Below the pieces are notes generated by a model. It did no database searches. It was not told where the DNA came from and saw only the letters and a program-made list of their open reading frames with translations. Below are positions 6,301-62,923 of a stretch of 64,000 bases of DNA, piece after piece. The stretch comes from Pseudomonadota bacterium. GTDB taxonomy: Bacteria; Pseudomonadota; Gammaproteobacteria; Acidiferrobacterales; UBA6901. A program made the translations under genes and the position numbers. How positions within the stretch are numbered: position 1 is the first letter of the stretch; the number at the start of each line of letters is the position of its first letter. The stretch spans positions 29,414-93,413 of the forward strand of contig JAJYEE010000005.1 of NCBI GenBank assembly GCA_021790335.1. The letters run 5' to 3'.

Positions 6301-9017
6301 CGCAGCAGTGTGGCGATGTCATCGAAGTGCAGCCCGGTCGTGGGCTCGTCGAAAAGGAACAGGATGGACCGGTCAAGGTCGCGCCGCCGGCGCGCCTCGG
6401 CCAGATGGCCGGCGAGCTTGAGGCGCTGTGCTTCACCGCCGGAAAGCGTCGGAACCGGCTGTCCGAGCTTCAGATAGGATAGCCCGACGGCTGCCAGCGG
6501 CTCGAGCACGCGCTGCAGCTCCGCATGCCCCGAAAAAAAACCGATGGCTTCCGACGCGGTCATGTCCAGGACATCGGCAATCGACATGGCAGTCGCCGCC
6601 GGGCGTGATCGGTGCGGTCGGCCTTTCCGGTTTCGGGTGGCAGGCACCTTCGAAGATGCCTGCGCAAACAGCTTCACCTCCAGAACTTCATTTCGGTAGC
6701 GCCGGCCGTCGCAGTCCGGACAGCGAATGTAGACATCGCTTAGAAACTGCATCTCCACGTGTTCGAAGCCGGAGCCCTGGCAGGTAGGGCAGCGGCCGGT
6801 TCCGGCGTTGAAGCTGAACGTGCCGGCGGTATAAGCGCGCTGCTTCGCGAGCGGCTGCCCGGCGAACAGCCTGCGTATCGGATCGAGAGCGCCGACGTAA
6901 GTTGCCGGATTGGAGCGCGAGGTCCTTCCGATCGGAGACTGGTCTACCAGCACGACGTCGCGCAGCTGCTCATGTCCGCGCAGTTCACGGTGGTGCCCGG
7001 CGGCACCCGCCGCATGACCCTTGAGCTTGCGCAGTGCGTTGAAGCAGACGTCTACCATCAGCGTCGATTTGCCGGAACCTGACACGCCGGTGATGCAGAC
7101 CAGGCGGTTCAGCGGTATCCGCACGTCGATGTTCCTGAGGTTGTTTTCGGTCGCGCCGAGTATCTCGATCGCCGCATCCTGATCCGGGTTTCGGGTTGGC
7201 CCGGTTTCTTCCGCGGCAACGGATTTCTCGCCGCGCAGGTAGCGTGCGGTAAGGGAGCGGCGCGACCGCAGCAGCGCTGCGGGTGTTCCAAAAAAGACCA
7301 CCCGGCCCCCGTGTTCGCCCGGACCCGGCCCGAGGTCGAGGATGCGATCGGCTCCGAGCATGACCTGCGGATCATGTTCGACCACGAGCAGTGAATTTCC
7401 CGCGTCGCGCAGTCGATGGAGTACCTTCATCAGGCGCTGGACATCGCGCGCGTGCAAGCCGATGGACGGTTCGTCCAGAACGAATAGTGCATTAACCAGG
7501 GAGGTGCCCAGTGCCGTGGTCAGATTTATGCGCTGCACCTCCCCTCCCGACAGCGTGCGCGACTGCCGGTCCAGCGTCAGGTATCCGAGACCCACCTCCA
7601 CGAGGTAAGCGAGGCGCGTTCGCACCTCGCCCAGCAGCAGCTCCGTCGCCTCGTCCAGGGGCGCGCCGAGGCGCAGCTGCGCAAAGAACTCCCGGCAGCG
7701 GCCAAGCGGAAGAAGCGTGATGTCGCGAAGCGTCAGTCCCGGCAGCGGCACGGCGCTGCCGTGGCCGCCCGGAGCAAGGATGCCTGAGCGTGCACGGGCG
7801 GCGTCGGCGTCCGTACCGAGACGCCAGAGCAGGGCCTCGGGCTTCAGCCGTGCTCCGCCACAATCCGGACAGACCGTGTATGCGCGATACTTCGACAGAA
7901 GCACGCGGATGTGCATGCGGTAACTCTTGGTTTCCAGCCACTCGAAAAATCGTCTTACCCCGTACCACTTCGCCTCCTCCCAGGCGCCTTCTCCCTCCAG
8001 CACCCATTGCCGCTGAGCCGCAGACAGATGACTCCACGGGACATCGGTGGGGATCTTGCGCTTGCGTGCAAAGCGCAGAAGGTCGGATTGGCACTCGCGG
8101 TAGCTTTCGGTCTGCCACGGCCTTACCGCGCCTGCGGCCAGCGTCCTGGATTCGTCGGGAACGACGAGGTTGTAGTCGATCCCTATGATACGGCCGAACC
8201 CCCGGCAGGTCGGACAGGCGCCGATCGGAGAGTTGAACGAAAACAGGTTCGGAACCGGATCGTGGTATTCAATGTCGCAGTCCGCGCAATGCAGTCCGGA
8301 AGAGAAACGCCATGGATCGTTCTCCTCGCCCTGCAGTCCCAGAGGATAAACCGAGACGCGGCCGCGGCCGGCCTTGAGCGCCGCTTCAAGATCCTCTGCG
8401 AGCCGCGCGCGGTTTTCCGGCGCGATCAGGATGCGGTCCTGGATGACTTCTAGAATGTCGGGCGCGCGGTGCCGTACGCGCGTGTAGCCCTGGGCTGCGA
8501 GCAGACCGGCAACCTCGGTTTCGCTGAAGTTCTCCGGTATCTTGACGGAAAAGGCGATCAGTACCTGTTGCGACGGACCGCCGGCACGCTCCCGAAGGCG
8601 GGCGTAAATGCTGTCCGGGGTGTCGCGCATTACCGGGCGACCGCATTTGCGGCAATGGAGGCGGGCGGCCCGGGCAAACAGGAGCTTGAGGTGGTCGTTC
8701 AACTCCGTCATGGTTCCGACCGTAGACCGTGATGTGCGGACCGGATTGATCTGGTCGATGGCGATGGCCGGAGGGATGCCGTCTATGGCATCCACCTGAG
8801 GCCTGTCCATGCGGTCCAGGAACTGGCGGGCATAGGGCGAAAATGTCTCGACATAGCGCCGCTGGCCTTCGGCAAAGATCGTATCGAAGGCCAGTGACGA
8901 CTTTCCGCAGCCACTCACACCCGTGACGACGACCAATTCGTTGAGGGGAAGCCTCAGGTTGAGGTTCTTGAGATTGTTCTGGCGCGCGCCTCTGATGCGA
9001 ATCCAGTCGGAGCCCAT
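3354..9017 (-). CDS. uvrA: excinuclease ABC subunit A, double-length (tandem) UvrA, ~1887 aa
   Basis: Four Walker A motifs ([24 protein letters not shown] x2), four LSGGE signatures, multiple CxxC zinc modules; start taken at [17 protein letters not shown]. Confidence 0.92.
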
Positions 9018-9250
9018 TTGCATACCTGCCTGCGTGACCGCGAGCGCACGGTCCCGTGGATGCCGTCGGTCGCGATGGAGGGGCGTTATGTTAGGGGCGG
9101 GTGGCGCACAGGTAAAGCGTCGCCCTCGCTTGTCAGTACCGCGCGAATGGAGGCACAATGATTGCGCTGGCCTCGGCTGCCCGCCTTCACCGGTACTTGT
9201 CCCATGCAACCGGAGCGGCTCTCGCCGAGGCAAGGATCCAGGAGGAGCAG

Positions 9251-34563: not shown

Positions 34564-37500
34564 TCAGAGCAGAACCTGCTCCAGTCCGCCACGGCGGACG
34601 CGTTCGACGAAATGCCGCTGCCAGTCTGCACCCAATCGCTGATTGGCCAGTTCGACGACGATGTAATCCGTGTCGAGTCCGGTTTCGTCGCGGTATCGGG
34701 ACAGACCCTGTACGCAGGCGGGGCACGAGGTGAGTATTTTCATCCCAGTGCCGGATGTCTGGCTTTGCCCCGCGATCTGCTGACTTGTGCGACGAAGCTC
34801 CTCCAGCTTTCGAAATCTGACCTGGTTTGCGATGTCGGGACGTGCGATGGCAAAGGTTCCGGCTTCCCCGCAGCAGCGGTCGGACAGAGCCACCTCCTGT
34901 CCCATCAGCTTTGAGGCGACGCTCACGGGATTGTAGGTCTTCATGGGTGTATGACATGGATCGTGGTACAGGTAGCGCACGCCCTTGACCCCGGTCAGGT
35001 GCACGCCCTTCTCCATGAGGTACTCGTGGATATCCAGAAGGCGGCATCCGGGAAAAATCGCGTCGAATTCGTATTTGAGCAGCTGATCCATGCAAGTGCC
35101 GCAGGAAACGATCACGGTCTTGATGTCGAGATAGTTCAGCGTGTTTGCGACGCGGTGGAAGAGGACGCGATTGTCGGTGGTTATCTTCGAGCCCCTGCGC
35201 TCGTCGCCGGCAGACAGTTGCGGGTAGCCGCAGCACAGATAGCCGGGAGGCAGGACCGTCTGCGCACCAACCTCGTAGAGCATCGCCAGCGTCGCGAGCC
35301 CCACCTGACTGAACAGTCGCTCTGATCCGCATCCGGGGAAATAGAACACCGCGTCCGAGTCTTCGCTGATGCGGGCCGGATCCCGCAGTATCGGAATCGT
35401 CTTGCTGTCTTCGATGCCAAGCAGCGCGCGCGTGGTCATGGACGGCAGGCCGCCAGGCATCGGTCTGCGCACGAAGTTGATGATCTGCGCGGAAATCCGG
35501 GTGTGCCCCGTGGTTGCCTCAGGCGGCCTGCTGTTGTGCAGCAGGCCGACATGCCGGGCAAGACGATAGGCAATGCGTTGCGCGCCGTAACCCCACTCGA
35601 TGAGCGACTTGCGCAGCAGCCTGATTTTTGTCGGGTCGGTGGCGTTGAGATAGGCCATGGACAGCCAGGTCGCGGGATTCGGACTGCGCTTGCCCCGATC
35701 CTTGAGGATCCGGCGCATGCGGATCGTCACGTCCCCGAAATCGATGTCGACCGGACAGGGGTTGAGGCACTTGTGGCAGATCGTGCAGTGGTCGGCGACA
35801 TCATTCATCGCCTCGAAATGGCGCAGCGAGATGCCGCGGCGTGTCTGCTCCTCGTAGAGAAAGGCCTCGATGATGAGACCCGTGGCGAGGATCTTGTTGC
35901 GCGGGGAGTACAGCAGGTTTGCTCTGGGTATGTGGGTGCTGCACGTCGGCTTGCATTTTCCGCAGCGAAGGCAGTGGCGAATGTCGTCATTAAGAGCGCC
36001 GAGCTCGCTTTCCTCCAGTATGATCGCCTCCTGCTGCAGCAGGCGCAGGGACGGCGTGTAGGCGCGTTCCAGACCCGATTCCGGCAGCAGCTTTCCGCGA
36101 TTGAAGTTTCCGTTCGGGTCGACCTTGCGCTTGTATTGCGCGAACGCCTCAACGGATGCCTTGTCGAGATACTGGATCTTGGTGATGCCTATGCCATGTT
36201 CTCCGGATATGACTCCGCCTAGCGACAGCGCCAGGGCCATGACACGCGCAACGATCCGATCCGCCTCCTGCAGCATTCCGTAGTCGTTGGAATGGACCGG
36301 GATGTTGGTGTGAACGTTGCCGTCGCCCGCGTGCATATGGGTCGCCACGAAAAGCCGGGCGTTGCGCACCCGCGAGTGGATGGCGTCGAGTTGGCGGTGT
36401 ACGGGGGAGAATTCAAGCCCTCCGAAAATCTGTTTCAAGGGTCGCTCGACATCTGCGCGATACGAAATCCGCAGGTCACGCCTCAGCAGCTGCTGGATCA
36501 GCGTCTCGCCCGGCTGTGCCGGCGCCTGCGGCTCCGCGTCGAAAAGATTTTCGGCAGCGTCGACAGTCCGGTCGAGCCCGCTCAGGATGGATGACCAGCG
36601 CGCATGCACCCGATCGAGCAGTTCCAGGGCGGCTGTCTTCTTGTCGCCGAGAATGGCCATCGCCTCGTGGCTTGTCTCGTAGTCGGCTGCTGGCGGTGGA
36701 ACGTCGGAAAGATCCTGAAGGTATTCACGGACCGCCTCGATAATGCGTAGCTTGTTGGAAATAGACTGCTCTATGTTGATGCGTTCGATGCCCGCGGAGT
36801 ATTCCGCGAGTTTGTCCAGGGGTATCACTACGTCTTCATTGATCTTGAAGGCGTTGGTGTGCTTGGCGATGGCCGCCGTGCGCGAGCGGTCGAGCCAGAA
36901 CCGGCGCCTGGCCTCCGGGCTTACCGCGATGAACCCCTCCGCCCCGCGCGCATTGGCCATGCGTACTACCGCAGATGCGGCGGTGGCTACCGCCGCCTCG
37001 TCGTCGCCCGCGATATCGACGAGCAGTACCATCTTGGGGCGATCCCGCCGTGCGGCTTTGGTTGCGTAACCGACTGCTTTCAGGTATCGCTCATCCAGGT
37101 GTTCAAGGCCCGACAAGGAGACCCCCGGGCACCCGTCGAGGTAATTCTTGGTTTCGACAATGGCGGGAACCGCCTTGCCGAGATCGTGACCGAAGAACTC
37201 GAGACACAGGGTACGCAAATAGGCCGGCATGCGGTGCAGGATGAACACCGCGGAAGTGATCAGGCCATCACACCCTTCCTTCTGAACACCCGGCAGACCG
37301 GCCAGAAACTTGTCGGTCACGTCCTTGCCCAGCCCGATCTTGCGGAAAGCCTTTCCCGGGACGGACAGCACGCGTGGCTCGCCCAGCGGGGTGCGGCCGT
37401 CGATCTTGTAGCGCGTAATGCGGAACAGGACCTCCTCCTGCTCGTGAATTTTTCCCAGATTGTGATTCAGCCGCGTCACCTCCAGCCAGCGCGCATCCGG

Positions 37501-38400
37501 AGTCACCATGCGCCACGATGCAAGATTGTCGAGCGTCGTGCCCCAGAGCACCGCTTTTTTGCCTCCGGCATTCATCGCGATGTTGCCGCCGATCGTGGAG
37601 GCATCCTGAGACGTAGGATCGACAGCAAAGCTGTAGCCGCTTGCTTCCGCGAGCTTTGCTACGCTCAGGGTGATCGCTCCGGCCTGGGCCCGCACCACCG
37701 GCACGGGCGACGCGACTCCCTCCAGCTGCCGGACTTCCACAGGCCCGAGCTGGTCGAGCTTTTCGGTGTTGATCACCACCGATTCGGCGTGCAGCGGGAC
37801 CGCACCGCCCGTATACCCGGTACCTCCGCCGCGCGGAATGATGGTTAGCCCGAGATCTATGCAGGCCCTAACGATGTGGGCCGTCTCTTCCTCGCTGTCC
37901 GGATACACGACCGCCAGCGGATATTCGACGCGCCAGTCGGTAGCGTCGGTAACATGAGAGACGCGTGCGAGTCCGCTGAAATCCACATTGTCGCGGCGCG
38001 TCAATCGTCCGAGGTGTTTGCGCAGACGCCGACGCCACTCACGTTGGCGAGGGAACCAATTCTCGAACTCGCACACCGATTCGCGCGCGCGCTCCACCAG
38101 CGCCAGCGTGAGCGGGTTGCCTTCGGCGCGTTCGCTGATCTGGTCCAGGCGATGGTGCAGGGCGTGGACCAGCGACCCGCGCCGTTTCCGGTTCTCCAGG
38201 AGGTCGTCCTGGATGTAGGGGTTGCGGTGGATTACCCACATGTCTCCCAGGACCTCGAACAGCATGCGTGCCGAACGCCCGGTGCGGCGGGTGCCGCGCA
38301 GTTCGTTGAGGGTTTCCCACATCGCATCGCCAAGATAGCGGATGACGATTTCCCGGTCGGAGAAGGACGTGTAGTTGTAAGGAATTTCGCGGATTCGCAT
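34564..38400 (-). CDS. DUF3683 FAD-linked oxidase / 4Fe-4S / CCG-domain oxidoreductase (GlcD-GlcF-like fusion)
   Basis: [45 protein letters not shown]...C, CTICHKC...CP, CCG motifs; start 38400 or 38451. Confidence 0.9.
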
Positions 38401-38776
38401 AAAGCTGAGGCTCGTGGGACCGTGCCGATTTCCTTGGGGCACGTTACGCATATTAGCATGTACTTCTGGTTTTCCCGATTGGCCGCAGACATGCCGGGCA
38501 GGCCGGGGCTCCGGACGGCGGGTTTCGCCGTCCGGCCAGTCTGTGTGGCGGGATTCCGGTATCGGCTGCTTCTGGGCCGATGGATCGAGCCAGGCTCGTG
38601 CGTCACCCGCCGCACGAGCGGAATATTGCCCCACGGAGCGGTGATCGGCGCATTTTTAGCATGTGGGGCAGCGGACCGGAGTTCATGGCTCCGGCGGATT
38701 TTGACGTGGGTCAATGCGTCCGTGCAGGACGGATGACTATGCTCTTCCATGACGGTGGATACAGGGAGAGTGTGCC

Positions 38777-42762: not shown

Positions 42763-43949
42763 ATGTGCCTGTAGCCAAGGTGCCGGCTGCGGGCCGGGAG
42801 CGGCGACCTTCAATCTCGAAATACCGGTTTCCATGGCGCGGCGGCAATCGCTTCCAGCTGCTGGTCGACGGAAACCAGTTTTTCCCCCACATGCTCCAGG
42901 CCATCAACGACGCGGCCCATCACGTGCATCTGGAAATCTACCTTTTCGAGACCGGGACTGTTGCCGGCCGCTTCATCGACGCGCTGGTGGCGGCAGCGGC
43001 ACGCGGTGTGGACGTGCGCGTCATATTGGACGATTTCGGTGCGCGCGGCCTCGGCCGCGGTGACCGCGAGCGCCTGCGCGGCGGCGGCGTGAAGCTTGCC
43101 TTCTACAATCCGTTGCGTATCGGGAAATGGCTGAAGAATCTTGCCCGGGACCACCGCAAGCTCCTGGTCACGGACGGAACGACGGCGTTTGTCGGAGGAA
43201 CCGGCATCACCGATGAATTCGACCCGGCGGATTCTCCGGAATCGCGTTGGCGCGAAACCGTAGTGAAGGTGGCAGGACCTGTGATTTTCGACTGGCAGCT
43301 GCTGTTCATCGAAAGCTGGAAGCGCCATACCGGCGAGATGCTGCGACTGCCGGCCAAGCCGGCAGTCGCAGCGGGCGAGCGCATGCTGGGGCGTGTCACA
43401 TTGATGCGCGGAAGATCGCAGCAGGGAATAAAGCGCGATCTGATTGCGCATGTGCATTCCGCAGAGCGGCGGGTGTGGTTTTCCACTGCCTATTTTGTGC
43501 CGCCGCGCCGTATCCGGCGTGCGCTGCGGAGGGCTGCACGTCGCGGTGTCGATGTGCGGTTGCTGCTGGCGGGTCCGCGAACCGACCACCCCGCTGTGCG
43601 TCTGGCGGGACGGAGATTCTACGCTTCGATGCTCCGAAGCGGAGTGCGCATTTTCGAATTTCAGCCACGCGTTCTGCACAGCAAAGTGAGCCTGTGCGAT
43701 TCCTGGGTGTCGATAGGGTCGAGCAATCTCGATAACTGGAATCTGCGCTGGAACCTGGATGCTAACCAGGCAATCGAAGACCAGGAATTCGCCGAGCAGG
43801 TTCGCGCAATGTTCGATGCCGATTTCGCCCAGACCATCGAGTACACCTACCGGGACTGGACGCGCCGGTCGTGGCGCCTGCGCGTCAGCGAGTGGCTGTG
43901 GGGGCTGGTTGACCGGTTCCTCAACAGCATCGGTGACGGACGGCGCTGA
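42759..43949 (+). CDS. clsB: cardiolipin synthase B-like phospholipase D
   Basis: Two HKD motifs, HRKLLVTD and HSKVSLCD; GSSNLD; ybhP-clsB synteny. Confidence 0.85.
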   Translation: MNVPVAKVPAAGRERRPSISKYRFPWRGGNRFQLLVDGNQFFPHMLQAINDAAHHVHLEIYLFETGTVAGRFIDALVAAAARGVDVRVILDDFGARGLGRGDRERLRGGGVKLAFYNPLRIGKWLKNLARDHRKLLVTDGTTAFVGGTGITDEFDPADSPESRWRETVVKVAGPVIFDWQLLFIESWKRHTGEMLRLPAKPAVAAGERMLGRVTLMRGRSQQGIKRDLIAHVHSAERRVWFSTAYFVPPRRIRRALRRAARRGVDVRLLLAGPRTDHPAVRLAGRRFYASMLRSGVRIFEFQPRVLHSKVSLCDSWVSIGSSNLDNWNLRWNLDANQAIEDQEFAEQVRAMFDADFAQTIEYTYRDWTRRSWRLRVSEWLWGLVDRFLNSIGDGRR

Positions 43950-43965
43950 CCGCGCGCAAAGGCGT

Positions 43966-44991
43966 TCAGGCGGGTTCCGGAGCATTTCCGGAAAAGGCCT
44001 CCTCTACCTCTCGGTAGATGTCTGCCTCGTCTCCGGCATAGCGTGCAGAAAAGTGCATGGGCACGAGGCGCCTGGCGCCGCAGGCGCGCCCGAGCGCGCC
44101 GGCCTGACGCGCCGTAAGGTGGTATTTCCGGGCGGCATGGTCGGCGTCCCGGTGCAAGAAGACCGCCTCGATGAACAGGCAGTCAGCATTGTGCGCGAGC
44201 TCGCGGACGCGCTGCGCATTCTCCGCGTGGTAGACGATATCGACAATATAGGCGATCTTCTGGCCAGCGGCGAAGCGCAGCACATTGCGGCGCAGGTCGC
44301 CGAGCGGAATCATGCGTTCATGATGGCTGTCGCGGTCGGTCCAGTGGACACGGACTTTCGTGTTATCGGGGTCTCCGTGGCGCACCGCCGCTTTCAGTTC
44401 ATTCAGCCACGGACCTGTGGGAAGCCCAAGTTCGGTCAACCGGTTCTTCCAGACGTTGATGTGCTGTTTTTCCTCGAGCGCGAAGCCCAGGCATGCGGTA
44501 CGGTGATCAAGCAGCGTGGCGAGCACGCGAAAATTCTCCTCGTCCAGCAGCACGCCGTCGGCGGCAGGGCGGGACGGCAGGTCCTCGCGTTTGAAACCTG
44601 ATCGGCAGCGGAAGCGGGCCATGCGCAGCTCTCCAGACGGCCGCCATTCGTTTGCCTCGAGCGTAAAGTCGGTCGCGTAGTCTTGCACGAGATTCCAAGT
44701 ATAGGCCGCGAGCTTGTGTTCGACGCGGTCGATGAATTCCTGGGGGCCGAACAGGGCGAGAGTGCGGGCACGGCCCAGGCAGATGCGCACGATCCGATCG
44801 AGCCCCATGAAGTGGTCCATATGGGCGTGCGACACGAAAATGTGTGTCAGGCGAAGTATCTTGCGCGCCGACAGCGACTGGATATCCCCCAGATCGAAGA
44901 GCAGCGCCCGTCTGGCAAACCGGAAGTCCACGTAAACCGAGGGATCACCGAACGGACCGTTGACGAGGAGAGGCTGTAGAGTCGACGCCAT
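43966..44991 (-). CDS. metallo-beta-lactamase fold protein (RNase Z-like)
   Basis: LVNGPFGDP, SHAHMDH, LDH, HLTARQAG, MHFSARY. Confidence 0.85.
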   Translation of the reverse strand: MASTLQPLLVNGPFGDPSVYVDFRFARRALLFDLGDIQSLSARKILRLTHIFVSHAHMDHFMGLDRIVRICLGRARTLALFGPQEFIDRVEHKLAAYTWNLVQDYATDFTLEANEWRPSGELRMARFRCRSGFKREDLPSRPAADGVLLDEENFRVLATLLDHRTACLGFALEEKQHINVWKNRLTELGLPTGPWLNELKAAVRHGDPDNTKVRVHWTDRDSHHERMIPLGDLRRNVLRFAAGQKIAYIVDIVYHAENAQRVRELAHNADCLFIEAVFLHRDADHAARKYHLTARQAGALGRACGARRLVPMHFSARYAGDEADIYREVEEAFSGNAPEPA

Positions 44992-45088
44992 GGCGAACCC
45001 GCCGCTGTGGTCATTATCGGGGTGGGTGTTCCATATTAACATGCCCTGCGGCCGTCGCCCGATGCGGGTGAACCCCCGGTCAACGGTG

Positions 45089-46387
45089 CTAGCGTGCGCA
45101 GCTGCGAAACCCCGCGAATATGTCGTTTCTGTCTGGTGTGTAGAAGTTGCGCCAAGTATTCCACACCAGCCGCGCCGGGGTTGCCCAGCTTCCGCCGCGC
45201 AGAACCTTGTGCGTTCCGAACCATGGCGCGGAATAGTCGCGGTAAGGGTCGGGAGAAAAGCCCGGATAGGGAGCGAAAGTGGATGCGGTCCATTCCCAGA
45301 CGTTGCCGATCATTTGGCGGCAGCCGCAGGCGCTGTCGCTTTGCGGAAGCGCCGCGACATCGATGCTGGCGAGTGTGCCGCCATGCAGATTGGCGTGCGT
45401 TCCAGTCGGGGTTTCGTCCCCCCACGGATAGCGGCGCTTCCGTGCACCCTTTACGCCACCCGGCATGACCTCGCAGGCTGCCGCCGCCTCCCATTCGGCC
45501 TCGGAAGGCAGCCGCCGCCCCGCCCAGCGACACCAAGCCTGGGCTTCGTGCCAGTTCACGTGCATCACCGGCGCGTGCGGTGCCAGTGCGGTCCAGCGAT
45601 CGAAACGGCGCACTTCCCAGTCCGGGCCGTTCCTGCGCCAGTACCGCGGCGCTTCGGCGCCGGCCCGTGCGCGCCATTCCCATCCGCAGTCGTCCCAGAA
45701 CTCGCGTCGGCGGTACCCGTGGTCGTCGACGAAGGCCACATAATCCGCATTGGTCACCGGTGCCCGTGCTATGCGGAATGGCGCCAGTTCCACCGGGTGC
45801 GCCCACTTTTCGTTATCGAATACGAAACCCTCGGTCGACGTGGCGCCAAGCAGGAAGCGGCCGCCCGGCACCTCCACGTCCCCCGGCAGCGGGCCGGCCG
45901 ACGTCGCAAGCGCAGCGGTTCCGGCCGGTGCCGGGTAACCCAGGGTCTGGCGCATGTACGTGAACGCCTCGGAGTGCATGTCCTGGTGGAAAATGGCGAG
46001 CAGATAAAAGTAGGCATCCCTCTCGGGCACCGAGTCCCCGTGGTCATGCAGGCGCTGACGCAGCGCATCATTCACCGCCTGCAGATAGGCGAGGGTGTCC
46101 ACCACCGGGGGCAGGGGCAGGTCCCAACGCCGGTCATGCGCGATCGCGGAGGAGTCGTACAGGGTATCGGCCTCGGGCATCAGCGGGGCACGCCGGTCCA
46201 GATTGCGCAGGATCCAGTATTCGCTGAACCACGCCAGATGTCCGATTTCCCAGTTCGGGGGGTTCACCGTGGGCAGGCGCGGGCCGAGCATCTGGTCCGG
46301 GCCGAGATCGGTGACCAGACGCAGGGTGCGCGCGTGCGTATCGTCGAGGTATTCGAGAAGTTCTGCCGCTGTCACGGGATTGGCCAT
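45089..46387 (-). CDS. senA: selenoneine synthase SenA (EgtB-like sulfoxide/selenoxide synthase)
   Basis: DinB-like WEIGHLAWF and HQDMHSE metal motif plus FGE-sulfatase domain (FDNEKWAH, RLPSEAEWE, GNVWEW, RNFY, GFR); adjacent to senB and selD. Confidence 0.85.
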   Translation of the reverse strand: MANPVTAAELLEYLDDTHARTLRLVTDLGPDQMLGPRLPTVNPPNWEIGHLAWFSEYWILRNLDRRAPLMPEADTLYDSSAIAHDRRWDLPLPPVVDTLAYLQAVNDALRQRLHDHGDSVPERDAYFYLLAIFHQDMHSEAFTYMRQTLGYPAPAGTAALATSAGPLPGDVEVPGGRFLLGATSTEGFVFDNEKWAHPVELAPFRIARAPVTNADYVAFVDDHGYRRREFWDDCGWEWRARAGAEAPRYWRRNGPDWEVRRFDRWTALAPHAPVMHVNWHEAQAWCRWAGRRLPSEAEWEAAAACEVMPGGVKGARKRRYPWGDETPTGTHANLHGGTLASIDVAALPQSDSACGCRQMIGNVWEWTASTFAPYPGFSPDPYRDYSAPWFGTHKVLRGGSWATPARLVWNTWRNFYTPDRNDIFAGFRSCAR

Positions 46388-46425
46388 ATACTATGCCTGT
46401 TCCGAATTATGTCCCTGTGAAATCC

Positions 46426-47373
46426 ATGCGTATATTGATTGTGACGCCTGCGCCGCGTGGATCGCGGGCTGGCAACCGTACTACGGCACGCCGCTGGGCC
46501 AGAATCCTCAGGGCCGAAGGCCACCGCGTCTCGGTCACGGTCGGGTACGATGGTGCGCCGGCGGACCTGATGGTCGCGTTGCACGCCTGGCGCAGCGCGG
46601 ACGCAGTGCAGTGTTTCCGGGAGCATTGTCCCGACCGGCCATTGATTGTAGCACTGACGGGTACGGATCTTTACCACTTCCTGCGCACCGATTGCGAAGT
46701 CACGACGCGTTCCATGAAGCTCGCTCACCGGCTCGTGGTTCTGCACGAGGCTGCGATCGACACGGTTCCTCAGCCGCTGCGCGGCAAGGTGCGGGTGATT
46801 CTGCAATCGGCGGATGTCTTTCCCGAGAGAAAACCGTCTCCGCGGCGCTTCGACGTCTGCGTGATCGGACATTTGCGCGATGAAAAGGATCCGTTGCGCA
46901 CGGCCTATGCTGTGCGCAACCTTCCGTTGCAGTCGCAGCTGCAGGTGCTGCATCTGGGGAAGGCGCACACCGATGCCTGGGCGCAGGCGGCGCGCGCAGA
47001 GATGGCGCAAAACCCGCGATATCGCTGGCGCGGTGAGGTCCCATACCGGGAGGTGCGGCGGGTGTTGGCGCGCAGCCGGCTCATGGTGCTGTCATCGCGC
47101 ATGGAGGGGGGCGCCAACGTGATCTCGGAAGCCGTGGTTGCCGGCGTGCCGGTAATCGCCTCGCGCATCGACGGATCGGTCGGCCTGCTTGGCTCCGGGT
47201 ACCCGGGGTATTATCCGGTCGAAGACACGGCGGCGCTTACCGGGATGCTGTTGCAGGCCGAGCGTGACCCGGTTTTCTACGCGCGCCTTCAGGATGCCTG
47301 TGCGCTGCGTGCACCACTGTTTGATCCGCAGCACGAGCGGCAGGCATGGCGCGCTGTGCTGGCCGAGCTGTAG
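46426..47373 (+). CDS. senB: selenosugar synthase SenB (TIGR04348-type glycosyltransferase)
   Basis: IVTPAP.GSRAGNRTTARRW, ALHAWRS, LTGTDLY, GHLRDEKDP, SRMEGGANV. Confidence 0.9.
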   Translation: MRILIVTPAPRGSRAGNRTTARRWARILRAEGHRVSVTVGYDGAPADLMVALHAWRSADAVQCFREHCPDRPLIVALTGTDLYHFLRTDCEVTTRSMKLAHRLVVLHEAAIDTVPQPLRGKVRVILQSADVFPERKPSPRRFDVCVIGHLRDEKDPLRTAYAVRNLPLQSQLQVLHLGKAHTDAWAQAARAEMAQNPRYRWRGEVPYREVRRVLARSRLMVLSSRMEGGANVISEAVVAGVPVIASRIDGSVGLLGSGYPGYYPVEDTAALTGMLLQAERDPVFYARLQDACALRAPLFDPQHERQAWRAVLAEL

Positions 47374-47389
47374 CGGACGGTTCTGACCT

Positions 47390-49657
47390 TCATCGCAGGA
47401 CGAGTGTCACCGATGCAGCCGCGTTGCCCGGTTCCATGACGCGCCCTATGACCGCGCTCTGGGCATAGCCGAGCCGGCGCAGAGCGGCAAGGCAGAGGTC
47501 CGAGTTTTCCTCGGGGACGGACGCCAGCAGACCCCCCGCCGTCTGAGGATCAAACAGCAGCGGGTAGCGCGCATGCGCGACGGCGGTATCCAGGTTGCAG
47601 ATCGCGCGCCGCAGGCGGATGTTCTCCGGTTGCAGGGAGCTGAAGATCCCTTGTGCCAGGGATTCGAGTGCACCGTCCAGGACCGGCAGACTGTCGAGTT
47701 CTATTTCGACGTCGACCTGGGAAGGGCGGGTCATCTCCAGGAGGTGACCCAGCAGCCCGAAGCCGGTGACGTCGGTGCAAGCGTGTGCTCCGTGAAGCAT
47801 CAGGCAGTCGGCGGCCGCGCGGTTTGACTGCAGCATGGACTCCAGCGCCGCATCGATCCAGCGTCCCTTGGCAAGCCGGCGCATGTCGGCGGCGAACAGG
47901 GTGCCGGTGCCCAGGGCTTTCGCGAGAATCAGTCGGTCTCCCGGGCGCATGCCGCCCTTGCGCAGAAGCCGTCCGCGTTCCGCCAAGCCGTTGACGCACA
48001 GCCCGAAGGCCAGCTCGGCGCCTTCGCTCGAATGTCCGCCGACGAGTGCCGCTCCGGATTCTTCGAGCGCCACCGCGGCGCCGGCCATCATCTCGTAGAG
48101 CGCCTGCTCGATCTTGGCTTCAGGGCCGAACGGAACGCTGGCAATGGCGAGGGCCGACTGTGGCTGTGCGCCCATCGCATAGATGTCGCCGAGGCTGTGG
48201 TTGGCGGCGATCCTGCCGAACAGGTACGGATCGTCGACGATGGCGCGGAAAAAATCCACAGTGTGCACCATGACCTGTCCGGCGGGTACTTCGACGACCG
48301 CGGCGTCGTCCGCATCGCGCATGCCGACAAGAATGTCGGTGCGCGGTGCTATCGAGATGCGGGCGAGCACGCGGGCAAGTACCGTGCTGCCGATCTTGGA
48401 TCCGCATCCGCCGCAGCGCATCGCCCACGCGGATATCTCGCGTAAAGCCTCGCCGTCCGCCGGCGTATCCGGCCGGCCCGCGCTGCCGGCCATGTGGTTC
48501 GGCAGCAGCGGTTCCCGGTAGCGCTCCATCCAGCGTCTGTCTATCCAGTCCTTCCAGCGCCATATGGCCGCTCCTGCGATGGTCAGCGGTCCGCGCGAAG
48601 CGATGGCGGAGCGGTCTCCCGTGCTTATCAATGCGAGAAAACGGCGCTGCGGAACGAACGCAACCAGCGGTTCGCATTTCGATGCGCGCCGCAGATTCAC
48701 GGCAAGCGCCGGACCCTGACGTACCGCCATCACGCCGGATTTCGCGCGCGGATGATTGCGCATGGTCGCGATGTCGCCGGCGGCGAAAACACCCGGGTGA
48801 GAATAGGACTGCAGGAAGTCATCGACCTCGATAAACCCGGTCGAAGTGGTCGTGAGCCCGGTGCGGGCGATCCAGCCCGGAGCCGCCGCGTTCGTCGCCC
48901 AGATGAGCGCATCGTAGGGAAAGGACAGAGTGGCGCCAGCGTGTATCGCAGTAATATGTTCCGCCGTGACTTTGTGCACGCGATGTTCGGGATGGACCGA
49001 TACCCCTCGTTCCGAAAGGATGTGCATGAACTTCCGTCTCACCCGCTCATGGTGCGTGGGAAGGATCTGCGGCGCTTCCGAAAACAAATGGAACTGCGCC
49101 CGCCCGGCGCCGCCGGCGGATGCAACGCGATGCTGCAGCGAAAGCGTGAGCTCTACCCCTCCGGCGCCGGCGCCCACCACTGCGATGCGGAAGGTACTCG
49201 CGGTATTGCGCATGCGCCTCTCGATCAGATCCCATCCTGCGAGAAAGCGGTCGACTGGCTTTACCGGCAGCGCATGTTCTGCCACTCCCGGAATGCCGCT
49301 TTCGTCCGGTGTCGAGCCGATGTCGATCGAGAGCACGTCATAGGGGACCGCCGGGCGCCCGCGGCACAACACCCGGCGGTTCGCCAGGTCCAGCCCGACC
49401 ATTTCGTCGTGGTAGAGCCGGCAGCCGGCGAAGTGCGCGAGCGGGCGCAGGTCCACATGGACTTCGTCGAAGCCGTAGTGGCCGGCGATATAGCCGGGCA
49501 ACATGCCGGAATAGGGCGTGTGGACGTCGCGCGTTATAAGGGTGAGCCGTACCCCCGGTTCGGGGCGCATCCCGAAAGCCCGCAGCACAGCTACGTGGCT
49601 GTGGCCGCCGCCAACGAGCACCAGATCCTTACGAACGATGTCTGACTGGCCTTGCAT
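47390..49657 (-). CDS. selD: selenide, water dikinase (SelD/SenC) fused to an N-terminal pyridine nucleotide-disulfide oxidoreductase
   Basis: N-terminal LVLVGGGHSH, GAGAGG, FAAGD; C-terminal MRCGGCGSK, DDAA, HTVDFF, GGHSSE, TDVTGFGLLGH, DPQTAGGLL. Confidence 0.92.
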   Translation of the reverse strand: MQGQSDIVRKDLVLVGGGHSHVAVLRAFGMRPEPGVRLTLITRDVHTPYSGMLPGYIAGHYGFDEVHVDLRPLAHFAGCRLYHDEMVGLDLANRRVLCRGRPAVPYDVLSIDIGSTPDESGIPGVAEHALPVKPVDRFLAGWDLIERRMRNTASTFRIAVVGAGAGGVELTLSLQHRVASAGGAGRAQFHLFSEAPQILPTHHERVRRKFMHILSERGVSVHPEHRVHKVTAEHITAIHAGATLSFPYDALIWATNAAAPGWIARTGLTTTSTGFIEVDDFLQSYSHPGVFAAGDIATMRNHPRAKSGVMAVRQGPALAVNLRRASKCEPLVAFVPQRRFLALISTGDRSAIASRGPLTIAGAAIWRWKDWIDRRWMERYREPLLPNHMAGSAGRPDTPADGEALREISAWAMRCGGCGSKIGSTVLARVLARISIAPRTDILVGMRDADDAAVVEVPAGQVMVHTVDFFRAIVDDPYLFGRIAANHSLGDIYAMGAQPQSALAIASVPFGPEAKIEQALYEMMAGAAVALEESGAALVGGHSSEGAELAFGLCVNGLAERGRLLRKGGMRPGDRLILAKALGTGTLFAADMRRLAKGRWIDAALESMLQSNRAAADCLMLHGAHACTDVTGFGLLGHLLEMTRPSQVDVEIELDSLPVLDGALESLAQGIFSSLQPENIRLRRAICNLDTAVAHARYPLLFDPQTAGGLLASVPEENSDLCLAALRRLGYAQSAVIGRVMEPGNAAASVTLVLR

Positions 49658-49714
49658 CCACGGCCCGCTGGCATGGTGACGTCGCAGATCGCTTCTCCGG
49701 CGGCGGACCGCCGT

Positions 49715-50392
49715 TTATTTGATCTTCAGAAGTTCAATGTCGAAAATCAGCGTCTCATTCGGCCCGATGACGCTGCCCACACCGCCCGCGCCGTAGGCAA
49801 GATTGGCGGGAATGTAGACCCTCCACTTGGATCCGACCGGCATCAACTCCAGCGCCTGTTGCCAGCCCTGGATCACTCCGGTGAGCGGGAAAGTCGCCGG
49901 CTTCCCGCGCTTGTAGGAGCTGTCGAACTCGGTGCCATCGATCAGCAATCCCCGGTAGTTGGCGACGACGGTGTCGCTCACGTTCGGCCTGGGACCCTTG
50001 CCCTCGGTGATCACCTTGTACTGCAGTCCGCTGGGAAGGGTGACGACGCCCGGTTTTTTCGCGTTTTCCGCGAGAAACTTCGTTCCAGCCGCCAGGTTCC
50101 TCTGTGCCAGCGTGGCCTGGTCGGCCTCGCGTTTGTGCTGGTAGGCGAGGACTGCCGCGCGCATCTGGTCGCTGCTGAGTCGCGCTGGCCTGCCGCTTTC
50201 TGCATCATTGATCGCCAGCAGCAGCGCCCTGGAATCGATATCCATGCGCTCATTCTTGAGGTTCTCCCCGATTCGATATCCGACCACGTAGCTGATGCGC
50301 TGCTTTTGGGTAGTCAGTTTTGAGGGGGTCGCAGCACAGCCGCACAGAAAAATCGCGACCAAAGCGAAGCTAAGTGGATTCCGGATACTCAT
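49715..50392 (-). CDS. FKBP-type peptidyl-prolyl isomerase (Mip/FklB-like lipoprotein)
   Basis: Lipobox LCGC; LPSGLQY, FDSSY, VIQGW, LAYG. Confidence 0.93.
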   Translation of the reverse strand: MSIRNPLSFALVAIFLCGCAATPSKLTTQKQRISYVVGYRIGENLKNERMDIDSRALLLAINDAESGRPARLSSDQMRAAVLAYQHKREADQATLAQRNLAAGTKFLAENAKKPGVVTLPSGLQYKVITEGKGPRPNVSDTVVANYRGLLIDGTEFDSSYKRGKPATFPLTGVIQGWQQALELMPVGSKWRVYIPANLAYGAGGVGSVIGPNETLIFDIELLKIK

Positions 50393-50844
50393 GACTGTCC
50401 CTCAGGGATTGCTTGTGTGATGTTCTCATCCAGGAATGGAACGGCAGTTCCGACCCCTTTCAGTGCCCTACGGGCTGTGAATGGGAACGCTCCCCGGTGC
50501 CGGTCCCGTCACGGCGTCATGTTCCCATAACCTTTCGTTCCAGCCAAGCGTGCAGCGATGCAGCTGCCGGCGGTACTGCGCCTGGCAAAGACTCCGTGTC
50601 GTCTGGGCGGGCGACATCGAACCCGGAAGCAGCCGCGCCTGCCTCAGGTGCTGGTCGTGACGCCGCGACCGGTGCCGTTGTCCGGCATCCGTAATCGGCG
50701 TGGCGATGGCGCCGTTGCCCGCCGGTACCGGCGGGCAGGCCTTGCACGGACATGTTAAAGTGACGGCGAGTGCGGAGGGATCGCCGGCGCTGTCACGCTC
50801 GCGCTCCTGATTTTTCAAGCGCAACCGGTTGGGAGTGGCAACAG

Positions 50845-57761: not shown

Positions 57762-59219
<1,458 letters not shown>

Positions 59220-59232
59220 CGTTTCTCCTGTG

Positions 59233-60420
59233 CTACGGATAATCCGCCATCTCGCCGGCGCGTTCACGCAAAAGCAGCTGCTTGAAGCTGGGCCAGATGT
59301 CTTCCTTGTTCTCGATCATGAGGGCGTGGAAGTTGGCAGCTTCTATCTTCTCGAAAAGCTCCAGCAGCGAATCGCCATAGGATCCGGAATTGAGCGGCTT
59401 GATTTCTCCGTAACCGAACAGATTGCAGACTTCGGCCAGTTCCCGCGCCGCCCTGAGTGCCGCCGGATTGTCCTGTGTCCAGTTGTCCCCGTCCGAGCAA
59501 TGGAAGGCATAGACATTCCAAAGCGAAGGATGAAACCGCTCCTTGATGATTTCCAGTGCCTTCAGATATCCCGAGGAAATGATTGTTCCCCCGGACCCGC
59601 CCTTGGTGAAGAACTCTTCTTCGCTCACCTCCCGGGCCTGTGCATCGTGCGCTATGAATACGACCTGAACATTGTTGTAGCGGGTTCTGACGAACTGGTA
59701 CAGCAGGAAGAAGAAGCTGCGCGCAAGATATTTCTTCATGGTATCCATCGATCCCGAGGTATCCATGATGCACAGGACCACGGCGTTGGATTGAAATCGC
59801 AGATCGCGCACGATGTGGCGGTACTTGAGATCATCGCGGTGAAATGGGAAGCGCGCCAGTCCAAGTTCGCTGACGGGGGGTGTGCGCGCCGCCTGCTTGC
59901 GGCGCATGCGCGCCATCGCCGTTCGCTTCTTGTCGAGGTGGGCGCGGACGCCCACCCGGCGGAACCCCTTGCGCTTGCGCATGCTTTCGACAGGAACCTC
60001 GCGCAGCTTCTTGCGCTCCATGTCGGGCAGATCCAGGTCCTCGAACATGATGTCGACCAGTTCCTCGAGCGTGATTTCGGTCTCGTAGTAGTCGACACCC
60101 GGCTGGTTCCCGGCCTTGCCGCCGGGCTGCGCGCCTTCGGTCTTGTCGATCACCTGTCCCGGCTGGCTGTCGCCTGGCCCGCTGCCGACCCTCGGGGAGT
60201 CGTCACCGAATATGAAGTGGTACTCGCGTACGCCGCGGATCGGAACCTTGATGATCTTGTCGCGGCTCTGGCCGATGATGGACTCCTCGGCCACGATGTC
60301 GACCACGTTCTCGCGGATGGCCTCGCGCACCTTCTGACGGTGACGCAGACGGTCCCCGGCACTGCGGTCCGAGCGCAGCGCATCGGACTCGGAATATGAG
60401 CGAAACACCGATTCGGTCAT
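59233..60420 (-). CDS. yeaH: YeaH/YhbH (DUF444) vWA-like protein
   Basis: DRLRHRQKV, MDTSGSM MIDAS, GGTIISS, SDGDNW. Confidence 0.92.
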   Translation of the reverse strand: MTESVFRSYSESDALRSDRSAGDRLRHRQKVREAIRENVVDIVAEESIIGQSRDKIIKVPIRGVREYHFIFGDDSPRVGSGPGDSQPGQVIDKTEGAQPGGKAGNQPGVDYYETEITLEELVDIMFEDLDLPDMERKKLREVPVESMRKRKGFRRVGVRAHLDKKRTAMARMRRKQAARTPPVSELGLARFPFHRDDLKYRHIVRDLRFQSNAVVLCIMDTSGSMDTMKKYLARSFFFLLYQFVRTRYNNVQVVFIAHDAQAREVSEEEFFTKGGSGGTIISSGYLKALEIIKERFHPSLWNVYAFHCSDGDNWTQDNPAALRAARELAEVCNLFGYGEIKPLNSGSYGDSLLELFEKIEAANFHALMIENKEDIWPSFKQLLLRERAGEMADYP

Positions 60421-60442
60421 GCCATGAACTCCGCGATCGCAC

Positions 60443-62374
60443 TCAGTCCTTCCACAGGTTGTTTGCGGCGTATTTCAGCACGACTTCCGCTGAATGCGGA
60501 CTGTAGCCGCGTTCCAGAAGCGCCTTGACGAGATCATCGTACTTCTTGAGCTGCTCCTCGTCGCGCGTGCGCGATTTGGTGATGACGCGGCTCATTTCGC
60601 GCACCGAGCTCATCAGTTTCCGCTCGATTGCCTCCTTCAGCGGCTCGTAGGAATGATGCGAAACTTTCTCCCCGCGGCGGCTCTTGGCCCAGAGATAGGC
60701 CATGACCTCCTGCCGGAAGCCCTGCGCAGCGGAGCCGACGATGGCGATCTGTTCCTCGACGGATTTCAGAAAGCTCTCGTCGGGCTGCAGGTCTTCGCCC
60801 GTATTGCGGTCTTTCAGACGCGTCTTGTTGACGTAGGCCTCGGCGTGATCCAGGTAATTCTGGAACAGCGCCTCTGCCTGCTCCTCGAAGGAGAACACGA
60901 ATGCCTTCGTGATTTCCTTTTCCAGCATCTCCAGATAAGCCTTGTGCAGGACATCCTGTAGAAATTCCAGGTACTGTTTGCGTGTGTCGTCCGGAAGGTC
61001 CGCGCCCTTGACCATGCTGATCAGGGCCTCGCGCACGTTTATCGGGTTGATTCCGTCCGGGCTTTCGGCAAGCGCATTGTCGATCGCCTTCATGATAAAG
61101 CGCGGCGAGATGCCGAACATCCCCTCGTGCCTCGTCTCCTCGCGCAGCTCGCGCACGTTGATCTTCGCGGTCTTTCCCTTTTCCACCACGTCTTCGCCGT
61201 TGTACAGGCGCAGCTTGGTCATCAGGTCGCACTTGTTGGTCGGTTCCAGACGAGAAAGGATGGCAAACATGGCGGCCAGTTCCAGGGTGTGCGGTGCGAT
61301 ATGCTCGCGGAAGTCCGACCTCTCCAGGAGTTTCTTGTAGATCTTGATCTCTTCCGCCAGACGCAGGTTGTACGGAACCTTGATTACCACCACGCGATCG
61401 AGTATCGCTTCATTGGTCGGGTCGCCCTTGAAGCGCTGCCACTCGGCCTCGTTGGAATGGGCAACGATGCAGGTGTCGACGTAGACCGTACCGTGGCGGC
61501 CGGGTGCCGGAATGAACTTCTCCTGGGTTGCCGTGATCATCGTATGCAGGTATTCCGGTTCGTTCTTGAACACCTCGATGAATTCGGTCATGCCGCGGTT
61601 GCCGACGTTGAATGCGCCATTGAGATCGAGCACGCGCGGATCACCTTCGGAGTAGGTGTCGAGCTTGGAAATGTCCACCGAGCCGATCAGCACGGACGTG
61701 TCCTGGTTATTCGGATCCACCGGCGGCACCACGCCTACGCCGCGGCGCTCATGCCGTGAAAACGGTACAGTCGCGACCGGCACGTCCTCGTAATGGCCGT
61801 TGAATTCCTCCCTTAGGCGGTGCCGGCACACTGGGCAGAGCTCGCCTTCCAGATGAAGGCCCAGCATCTTCTGGAACTCGCCACGAAGATGTTTGGGAAT
61901 GAGGTGAAGCGGTTCTTCGGCCATCGGGCACCCCTCGATGGCGTATACCGGAGGGCTCTCCTCGAGGCCACGTTGCAGCCGCTCGACGAGCGAGCTCTTC
62001 CCGGCACCGACGGGCCCCATGAGATACAGCACCTGGCGCGACTCTTCGCCATGCATGGACGCGGAATGGAAATAGCGGACGACCTGAGCGAGCGTGGGTT
62101 CGATTCCGAAGAACTCGTTGCTGAAGAAAGGATAGATCTTGATCGCCTCGTCGCCGAACAGCCTTTTGATGCGCGGATCGGCGGGGCTTGTGATGTCCGA
62201 GGCGCCGTGCTGGATAAGTGCGTCGTAGAGGCGCGCATGCGCGAGTTTCGGAATGGATGGATCGGCTTTGACTTTTTCGAGGTACTGGAGAAATGTTCCG
62301 CGCCACTCCAGGTTTTCGCGGTTGGCACGGTCTTTCTCGATCAGCTCAACGAAACCGGATGTCTTGTTAGCCAT
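60443..62374 (-). CDS. prkA: PrkA/YeaG AAA+ serine protein kinase
   Basis: GPVGAGKSS, EEPLHL, GNRG, AHSNEAEW, EAILDR, GISPR. Confidence 0.93.
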   Translation of the reverse strand: MANKTSGFVELIEKDRANRENLEWRGTFLQYLEKVKADPSIPKLAHARLYDALIQHGASDITSPADPRIKRLFGDEAIKIYPFFSNEFFGIEPTLAQVVRYFHSASMHGEESRQVLYLMGPVGAGKSSLVERLQRGLEESPPVYAIEGCPMAEEPLHLIPKHLRGEFQKMLGLHLEGELCPVCRHRLREEFNGHYEDVPVATVPFSRHERRGVGVVPPVDPNNQDTSVLIGSVDISKLDTYSEGDPRVLDLNGAFNVGNRGMTEFIEVFKNEPEYLHTMITATQEKFIPAPGRHGTVYVDTCIVAHSNEAEWQRFKGDPTNEAILDRVVVIKVPYNLRLAEEIKIYKKLLERSDFREHIAPHTLELAAMFAILSRLEPTNKCDLMTKLRLYNGEDVVEKGKTAKINVRELREETRHEGMFGISPRFIMKAIDNALAESPDGINPINVREALISMVKGADLPDDTRKQYLEFLQDVLHKAYLEMLEKEITKAFVFSFEEQAEALFQNYLDHAEAYVNKTRLKDRNTGEDLQPDESFLKSVEEQIAIVGSAAQGFRQEVMAYLWAKSRRGEKVSHHSYEPLKEAIERKLMSSVREMSRVITKSRTRDEEQLKKYDDLVKALLERGYSPHSAEVVLKYAANNLWKD

Positions 62375-62923
62375 AACCGACCTCCTCATTGATCCTGCAT
62401 TCAATTACCGCATCTCGTCACTTTCCCCCTTCGACCCTGATTTTTGTGGATCTTATTTATCTTATATAGCGCTTTTCCGCACCGGAATCCAAGAGCGCAA
62501 TATGTCGTGCGCCGTGCACCTTGCGGCGGTGCGGTCTTGACATTTGCGAATCGCGCCGCCCCGGCGTTTCGCGGGTCTTCCGAGCGCCGGCGGCACACGG
62601 ATTGCCTGTTGTCTGCCTCCTTATAATGAGTGAGACCGGAAAACGGGCGATGCGTTTCAGGCGACCGGGTTCGGATATCCGCTGTGAAGGCGCCAGGGTA
62701 CCGGGAGCGCGGTTTGCAGAGCATCGGGGCGAAATGGATGTATCCGTCCCGACCGAAAGCCGCCTTGGTCACCGTCGGGTCGCTGCTCCTGCAGCGCCGC
62801 TGCCGCGCAGGAAGTTCCCTGTGACGCGCGCCGCTGGCGGCTGATATAGTACCGGCCAGGGACCGGTTCGGCGCGGTGGAATGTCCGATCGCACAGTGAC
62901 CGTTGAAGACAAGGGGGAGAGCA

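Follow-up and report, generated by a model that had tools for sequence, protein, structure and literature searches.

An apparently intact selenoneine biosynthesis locus with a fused selenophosphate synthetase in an uncultured gammaproteobacterium of the Acidiferrobacterales

Whether three adjacent genes of an uncultured bacterium encode a working pathway to selenoneine, and from where such a pathway would obtain its precursor hercynine, was addressed by analysis of a stretch of 64,000 nucleotides from a genome assigned to the Acidiferrobacterales (Gammaproteobacteria, UBA6901; GenBank assembly GCA_021790335.1, contig JAJYEE010000005.1, positions 29,414 to 93,413 of the forward strand). This whole stretch is referred to as the window. 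An earlier note, made from the letters alone, had reported an EgtB-like enzyme, a TIGR04348-type glycosyltransferase and a SelD side by side at window positions 45089–49657 and had read them as the selenoneine genes senA, senB and senC. Open reading frames were found at exactly these coordinates and the profile searches agreed with the three families; all three products passed curated equivalog models and kept the residues defined for them in the literature, so that both the observation and the reading placed on it hold. Judged from its sequence, the locus is a genuine selenoneine cluster, to all appearance intact, and belongs to a kind described before. It is very probably a functional, canonical sen locus, the hercynine for which would come from a stand-alone methyltransferase, EgtD, encoded in a gap of the assembly.

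The senA product matched the SenA profile NF041186 of NCBIfam with 535.2 bits (cut-off 420) and the EgtB profile TIGR03440 with 334 bits, short of the cut-off of 360; Pfam assigned a DinB_2 and an FGE-sulfatase domain. No separate model for OvsA, the related enzyme of ovoselenol biosynthesis, occurs among the NCBIfam matches, so the NF041186 score alone does not exclude OvsA. The active site was read residue by residue. The iron triad (His50, His134 and His138) and the catalytic Tyr382 are present and aligned with those of OvsA and EgtB. At the selenosugar site, His84 and Tyr416 stand at the positions of Arg87 and Asp416 of EgtB (alignment with 4x8b and motif table); this pair is given as His and Phe/Tyr in all SenA proteins (10.1101/2022.04.13.486033). 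At the hercynine site, Tyr385, Asn414 and Phe415 stand at the positions of OvsA Met401, Gln430 and Ala431. The hercynine-site residues of SenA are reported as Tyr366, Asn395 and Phe396 and the OvsA residues as those which set the specificity for histidine and for C5; in the experiments of the same report, OvsA mutated to Tyr/Asn/Phe became SenA-like, with hercynine as the substrate and chemistry at C2 (10.1101/2024.04.10.588772). With EgtB of the EgtB/EgtD ergothioneine pathway (4x8b) the window enzyme shares the fold, the iron triad, the catalytic Tyr and the hercynine-site Asn, whereas the Arg87/Asp416 pair is changed to His/Tyr, the hercynine-site Trp is changed to Phe and the score stays under the EgtB cut-off.

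A motif table was assembled from 150 representatives at 50% identity, 93 of which (385–530 residues long) were kept and 57 dropped; with the window protein, 94 sequences were aligned with MAFFT. The ten-residue motif of the window SenA, HHH-H-Y-Y-W-N-F-Y, was the commonest (24 of 94 aligned sequences). A quick IQ-TREE tree was calculated from those 67 rows in which triad and catalytic Tyr are kept. The window protein fell on a side of 48 rows, 41 of them with the SenA motif, while the other side of 19 rows held all 16 rows with the EgtB motif (SH-aLRT, the Shimodaira–Hasegawa-like approximate likelihood-ratio test, 98). The grouping with EgtB enzymes using Cys or γ-GluCys, which the earlier note had named as the outcome that would speak against its reading, was thus not found, neither in the tree nor at the Arg/Asp positions. 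Unusual motifs were seen in several SenA-side representatives of the set (P0001–P0150), for example HHHHYYWKYH, HHHHYYSSFH, HHHNYYSNFY and HHHHYFRYWA; these might be further substrate variants, and alignment error is also possible.

The senB product matched TIGR04348 with 441.9 bits (cut-off 300), so that both proteins for which the earlier note had proposed a check by hidden Markov model profiles, SenA and SenB, scored over their cut-offs. It carries the Pfam domain Glycos_transf_1 and aligns over its full length with SenB of Variovorax paradoxus (8fbx, 198.9 bits). The conserved motifs GN..T, GHLR..K and EGGA.V cover the positions N20/T23, K158 and E231, which were shown to be important by mutagenesis (PMC10891094). 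The TIGR04348 match starts at residue 14 of the open reading frame, which makes Met12 the likely start.

The senC product is a fusion protein, a detail overlooked in the earlier note. Residues 414–718 matched the SelD profile TIGR00476 with 313.9 bits (cut-off 125; Pfam AIRS and AIRS_C) and residues 11–380 matched TIGR03169, a pyridine nucleotide-disulfide oxidoreductase profile labelled 'Nterm_to_SelD', with 479.9 bits (cut-off 310); both domains thus lie over their cut-offs within a single open frame of 755 residues. With a score of 460, the profile TIGR04369 ('fusion_not_SelD') stayed below its cut-off (700). The SelD half scored 173.5 bits against Escherichia coli SelD (3u0o), and Cys418 and Lys421 aligned with Cys17 and Lys20 of that enzyme, which we take to be its essential residues. 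The best solved relative of the flavoprotein half was of the NDH-2 type (4nwz, 65.8 bits). A comparison of 16 fusion proteins was made, consisting of the window SenC and the products of 15 of the related loci described below; the two cysteines of the SelD loop, Cys415 and Cys418, were invariant in all 16, and the flavoprotein and SelD halves were in one frame in 15 of the 15 related loci that have both.

For fusions of an NADH-dehydrogenase-like protein to SelD, Zhang et al. 2008 (PMC2432076) predicted a role in reducing a selenium compound on behalf of SelD. Among SelD fusions this flavoprotein::SelD type is described as the most frequent, and by a wide margin in Mariotti et al. 2015 (PMC4561486); it is scattered across bacteria and is a predicted supplier of reduced selenium (PMC2432076, PMC4561486). 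The window protein has the same build as these published fusions, with an N-terminal flavoprotein and a C-terminal SelD in a single frame. The published fusions are tied to the selenocysteine and selenouridine traits, whereas the window fusion and those of the 15 related loci would serve a sen cluster.

The remaining selenium traits were sought in the source genome assembly (G000; 3.08 Mb, 109 contigs, 97.6% complete). The genome profile search found SelD in a single copy, the senC fusion. SelA, SelU and YqeC were not found in the assembly and neither was SelB, the best match to which (192 bits, cut-off 242) lay in a GTPase gene. Two Rfam matches to tRNA-Sec (48.6 bits, threshold 47) were rejected as tRNA-Ser(CGA). 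These two copies (G000:C25:21966-22052 and G000:C52:21-107, one at a contig start) have equal scores and would mimic tRNA-Sec. The genome search for egtD, a canonical egtB and selA/selB/selU that the earlier note had suggested thus returned none of them from this assembly. With one SelD and no SelA, SelB, SelU, YqeC or tRNA-Sec, the enzyme is left without a known client other than SenB, and by this gene content it is dedicated to the selenoneine pathway. Unlike the published context of the fusion, a sen cluster is here combined with neither a selenocysteine nor a selenouridine trait.

In the pathway proposed for the locus, the SelD half of SenC would make selenophosphate from selenide and ATP, as shown for its homologues, and reduced selenium would most likely reach SelD from the flavoprotein half, with NAD(P)H as the reductant, in line with the published prediction. 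SenB would move the sugar of a UDP-sugar onto selenophosphate and hydrolyse the Se–P bond, yielding a 1-seleno-sugar. SenA, predicted to be an Fe(II)/O2 enzyme, would couple this selenosugar to C2 of hercynine, and the resulting selenoxide would eliminate the sugar to give selenoneine. Hercynine would be supplied by a stand-alone EgtD encoded elsewhere in the genome. That such a pathway is already described, as the earlier note stated, is borne out by the senA/senB/senC cluster of V. paradoxus DSM 30034 and by the 827 sen clusters catalogued with it (Kayrouz & Seyedsayamdost 2022, 10.1101/2022.04.13.486033). The window shares with the V. paradoxus cluster the three adjacent enzyme families, the diagnostic residues of SenA and SenB and the lack of an egtD within the cluster, at a moderate protein similarity (SenA 282 bits, SenB 199 bits); egtD is co-localized only in a minor fraction of the sen clusters (10.1101/2022.04.13.486033). 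In the window, SenC is fused and the strands alternate.

The observation of the earlier note that EgtD is not encoded in the window was borne out, and the rest of the assembly as it stands lacks the gene too. The profile TIGR03438 had no match anywhere in G000, and the best match to PF10017 (Methyltransf_33) reached 18.3 bits against a cut-off of 23. A second EgtB-like (NHISS) gene and an EgtA/C/E context were likewise not found in G000. The earlier note had left two explanations, an egtD elsewhere in the genome or a different acceptor and product. The former is favoured, since the egtD locus of the congeners falls in a gap of G000; the latter is disfavoured, because SenA has its hercynine-site residues intact, so that another acceptor need not be assumed.

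Other SenA-positive genomes almost always carry egtD. Among 61 relatives, SenA was over cut-off in eight including G000, and EgtD was over cut-off in all seven of the others. A sample of the class (300 genomes scored, one further genome not scored) contributed 15 other SenA-positive genomes, 14 of which had an EgtD match with E <= 1e-20, over cut-off in 12; two of the 14 matches were fragments in genomes 80–86% complete, and the lone miss was a genome 62% complete. Overall, EgtD was found in 21 of the 22 other SenA-positive genomes.

The expected position of egtD was taken from the congener G003, which has 94% nucleotide identity to G000 over 3.4 kb. Its egtD (locus L127, G003:C5, 7957-8922) lies in the run ppsR, ppsA, fabB, egtD, a GGDEF response-regulator gene, epmA and epmB. 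Contig C28 of G000 starts inside epmB, at residue 74 of 347, which corresponds to base 13615 of the G003 locus. The distance from egtD to epmB is ~4.5 kb in four congeners, and in G001, G002 and G004 a distance of 4.2–4.7 kb separates egtD from the homologue of the C28 end. The first 18.6 kb of the G003 contig has no counterpart in G000 save for a 248-bp match of 69% identity in a paralogous GGDEF gene, and tblastn searches of G000 found no orthologue of PpsA, PpsR, FabB or EpmA, whose genes adjoin epmB in four congeners, but distant paralogues only (27–40% identity). A housekeeping block that ends in the middle of a gene at a contig edge points to an assembly or binning gap and not to a deletion; most likely, egtD sits in an unassembled or unbinned gap of at least 18.6 kb which begins at the C28 end.

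Variation within the genus bears on the same question. Congener G005 (99% complete, 20 contigs) encodes neither SenA nor EgtD. The fabB and GGDEF genes of G005 and G003 are collinear, but in G005 ~1.4 kb including egtD is replaced by ~0.5 kb (G005:C5:8285-8797). The cardiolipin synthase gene cls and pepN are 165 bp apart in G005 (G005:C11:176463-176628) and 6.9 kb apart in G000, where the intervening block (window 43952-50844) holds the metallo-β-lactamase (MBL)-fold gene, senA, senB, senC and the FKBP gene. This block is slightly richer in GC (0.645–0.652) than its flanks, and no mobile-element gene was seen in it. In this small sample of related genomes, a gain or loss of sen and egtD together at two separate loci fits a functional link between them. 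The sole NHISS match of G001–G004 is SenA itself, with EgtD present, while egtD adjoins an EgtB-like gene in G010 and G029. The presence of EgtD without any EgtB in the genus implies that hercynine is not 'siphoned' there from an ergothioneine pathway, unlike in the model for the V. paradoxus sen cluster. Taken together with the sen-less congener that also lacks egtD, this gene content suggests that selenoneine is the sole purpose of hercynine synthesis in the genus.

The alternative that fares best is that the organism truly lacks egtD and takes up environmental hercynine, stops at the selenosugar or uses another SenA acceptor. It draws on the empty EgtD searches of a largely complete assembly and on the variability of egtD in the genus, exemplified by G005, and is nevertheless unlikely, because the expected place of egtD lies just beyond the contig break within epmB, four nearby housekeeping genes are likewise missing, almost all other SenA-positive genomes have EgtD and the loss of egtD in the genus accompanies the loss of sen and not its retention; moreover, the sen cluster has no neighbouring gene for a betaine or hercynine transporter. 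An extended version, in which the egtD block was lost and sen was kept, hercynine was scavenged from the mine-drainage community or the selenosugar accumulated, and the flavoprotein together with the invariant Cys-Gly-Gly-Cys loop of SelD formed a self-contained NAD(P)H-driven reductase and activator of selenium, is a long shot as well.

Several further points weigh against a canonical sen locus with its egtD in the gap and are to be counted with the two EgtD searches that came back empty. The gap is inferred from synteny, and metagenome contigs scanned for exact matches to the opening bases of C28 gave 0 records. Co-expression of the three sen genes is not evident from their alternating strands, and a scan for sigma-70-like promoters predicted 0 sites in 43800-50600 and was uninformative. 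A redox-active cysteine was sought in the flavoprotein half of SenC and rejected, as none is invariant (Cys98 occurs in 10 of the 16 fusion sequences). Finally, the nearest solved structure to the window SenA by whole-sequence score is OvsA (310–320 bits) and not SenA of V. paradoxus (282 bits).

This last point is the main argument for an ovoselenol (ovs) cluster, in which OvsA would selenylate free histidine at C5 and no EgtD would be needed. The ovs clusters of Halomonas utahensis and Marinobacter vinifirmus consist of OvsA, OvsM, SenB and SenC, OvsA having branched recently from SenA and the methyltransferase OvsM being required for ovoselenol (10.1101/2024.04.10.588772); the selenosugar cassette (SenB and SelD) is the same as in the window. 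The window enzyme scored 319.9 and 309.9 bits against the H. utahensis OvsA entries 8ux5 and 8u41, 285.8 bits against EgtB of M. thermoresistibile (4x8b) and 281.8 bits against SenA of V. paradoxus (8k5i). In the tree it lies, within the 48-row side, in a weakly supported group of 12 rows (SH-aLRT 89) with the sole OvsA representative, P0062 (554 bits against 8u41), and the hosts of ovs clusters are mostly aquatic gammaproteobacteria without egtD (10.1101/2024.04.10.588772). The residues decide otherwise: the Met/Gln/Ala set that defines OvsA is Tyr/Asn/Phe in the window, and the higher of the two OvsA scores is that of the OvsA-YNF mutant (8ux5), not of the wild type (8u41). In addition, the congeners carry egtD and OvsM is absent from G000 (TIGR04345 best 24.9 bits, cut-off 170), in a search able to find it, given that this domain was over cut-off in 12 of the 300 class genomes. 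Given the residues of the active site and the lack of OvsM, the ovoselenol reading was rejected and is very improbable; on this evidence the window enzyme is a SenA of the branch nearest to OvsA, and not an OvsA. Hardly any weight remains for a sulfur-using EgtB in an ergothioneine locus with SelD and the glycosyltransferase as unrelated neighbours, for although TIGR03440 and 4x8b both gave sizeable scores, the protein is under the EgtB cut-off and over that of SenA, the thiol-binding Arg87/Asp416 pair is His/Tyr, SenB is kept beside the SenA homologue in 72 of 80 related loci and there is neither an EgtA/C/E context nor a second NHISS enzyme.

The coordinates of the locus and its neighbours are given in Table 1. 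The three long open reading frames fill 45089–49657 with almost no spacing and alternate in strand; that they are not co-directional was, besides the fusion, the second detail overlooked in the earlier note. The divergent genes senA and senB have only 5 bp between their start codons, a distance that grows to 38 bp should senB begin at the second ATG (46426), and both promoters must therefore sit in neighbouring coding sequence (window 46385-46428). senB and senC are convergent, and 16 bp separate their stop codons. Tightly spaced divergent senB/senA pairs were also seen in many related loci.

Table 1 Features of the sen locus and its two flanking genes (window coordinates)
Feature	Position	Strand	Length and basis
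MBL-fold 'ribonuclease Z' PRK02126-type gene, 46 bp downstream of senA	43966..45042	-	NF002558, 452 bits
senA, putative selenoneine synthase, non-haem iron selenoxide synthase, DinB_2 + FGE-sulfatase	45089..46387	-	432 aa; NF041186, Pfam
senB, putative selenosugar synthase, GT-B Se-glycosyltransferase	46393..47373	+	326 aa; TIGR04348; probable true start ATG 46426
senC, whole open reading frame, flavoprotein::SelD fusion	47390..49657	-	755 aa; TIGR03169 + TIGR00476
senC, C-terminal half, selenophosphate synthetase (SelD) domain, residues ~414-751	47405..48418	-	TIGR00476
senC, N-terminal half, NADH-dehydrogenase-like FAD/NAD(P)H flavoprotein domain, residues 11-380, in frame with SelD	48518..49627	-	TIGR03169, Pfam Pyr_redox_2
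FkpA-like FKBP peptidyl-prolyl isomerase gene, upstream of senC	49715..50392	-	NF008602, 178 bits; Pfam FKBP_N, FKBP_C

Related loci were collected by a pattern scan of contigs from one genome per species, which returned at least 600 stretches, at least 576 of them encoding a SenA relative; the best 80 loci were kept and annotated by tblastn with the window proteins (E <= 1e-15, matches covering less than half of the query being dropped). These 80 loci span many phyla, the nearest being from a metagenome-assembled genome of the Acidiferrobacterales (66% identity). SenB, present in 72, is encoded opposite to the SenA strand in 47 and on the same strand in 25. The flavoprotein domain occurs in 19 loci and is accompanied by SelD in 15; an unfused SelD (36–41% identity) was found in nine and EgtD in 20. 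The window order, senC> <senB senA>, recurs in seven loci (L029, L031, L034, L039, L042, L050 and L107), and the order <senB senA> egtD> senC> occurs in four. The same - + - order is found in six of the seven SenA-positive relatives (G001–G004, G008 and G029); in the seventh, G010, the locus has the same senA/senB pair and ends before senC. With this recurrence in seven of 80 loci and six relatives, the architecture is a common variant. The suggestion of the earlier note that host and architecture might be undescribed did not survive, as related loci show both the gene order and the fused SelD again and the fusion has been published.

The MBL-fold and FKBP neighbours were considered as accessory sen genes and rejected. 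Neither occurs in any of the 80 wider loci. The MBL-fold gene follows senA in four of the seven informative loci of the relatives (present in G000, G001, G003 and G004; not in G002, G010 and G029); the contig of G008 ends 272 bases past senA, so that this neighbour could not show there. By their distribution the two genes are probably not part of the pathway.

Three other regions of the window were recorded. An open reading frame of 1959 residues (3354-9233, minus strand) has UvrA interaction, UvrA DNA-binding and ABC ATPase domains; UvrA is normally about half this length, pointing to a UvrA paralogue that is duplicated or fused. A protein of 1356 residues (34564-38634, minus strand) with DUF3683, FAD_binding_4/FAD-oxidase_C, 4Fe-4S dicluster, CCG and DUF3400 domains is, by its domain content, a large fused flavo-iron-sulfur oxidoreductase. 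The genes for PrkA, DUF444 and SpoVR (57762-62404, minus strand) are adjacent on the same strand and probably form one operon.

The sen stretch or part of it was present in eleven sequencing runs, four of them with 86–100% of its sampled words. The locus adds one more host, an uncultured bacterium in mine-drainage metagenome runs, to a pathway catalogued in hundreds of genomes. For the enzyme family, it illustrates that the SenA profile and whole-sequence similarity cannot tell selenoneine synthases from ovoselenol synthases, while three active-site residues can. The tracing of an apparently missing precursor gene to a likely assembly gap calls for caution in similar cases.

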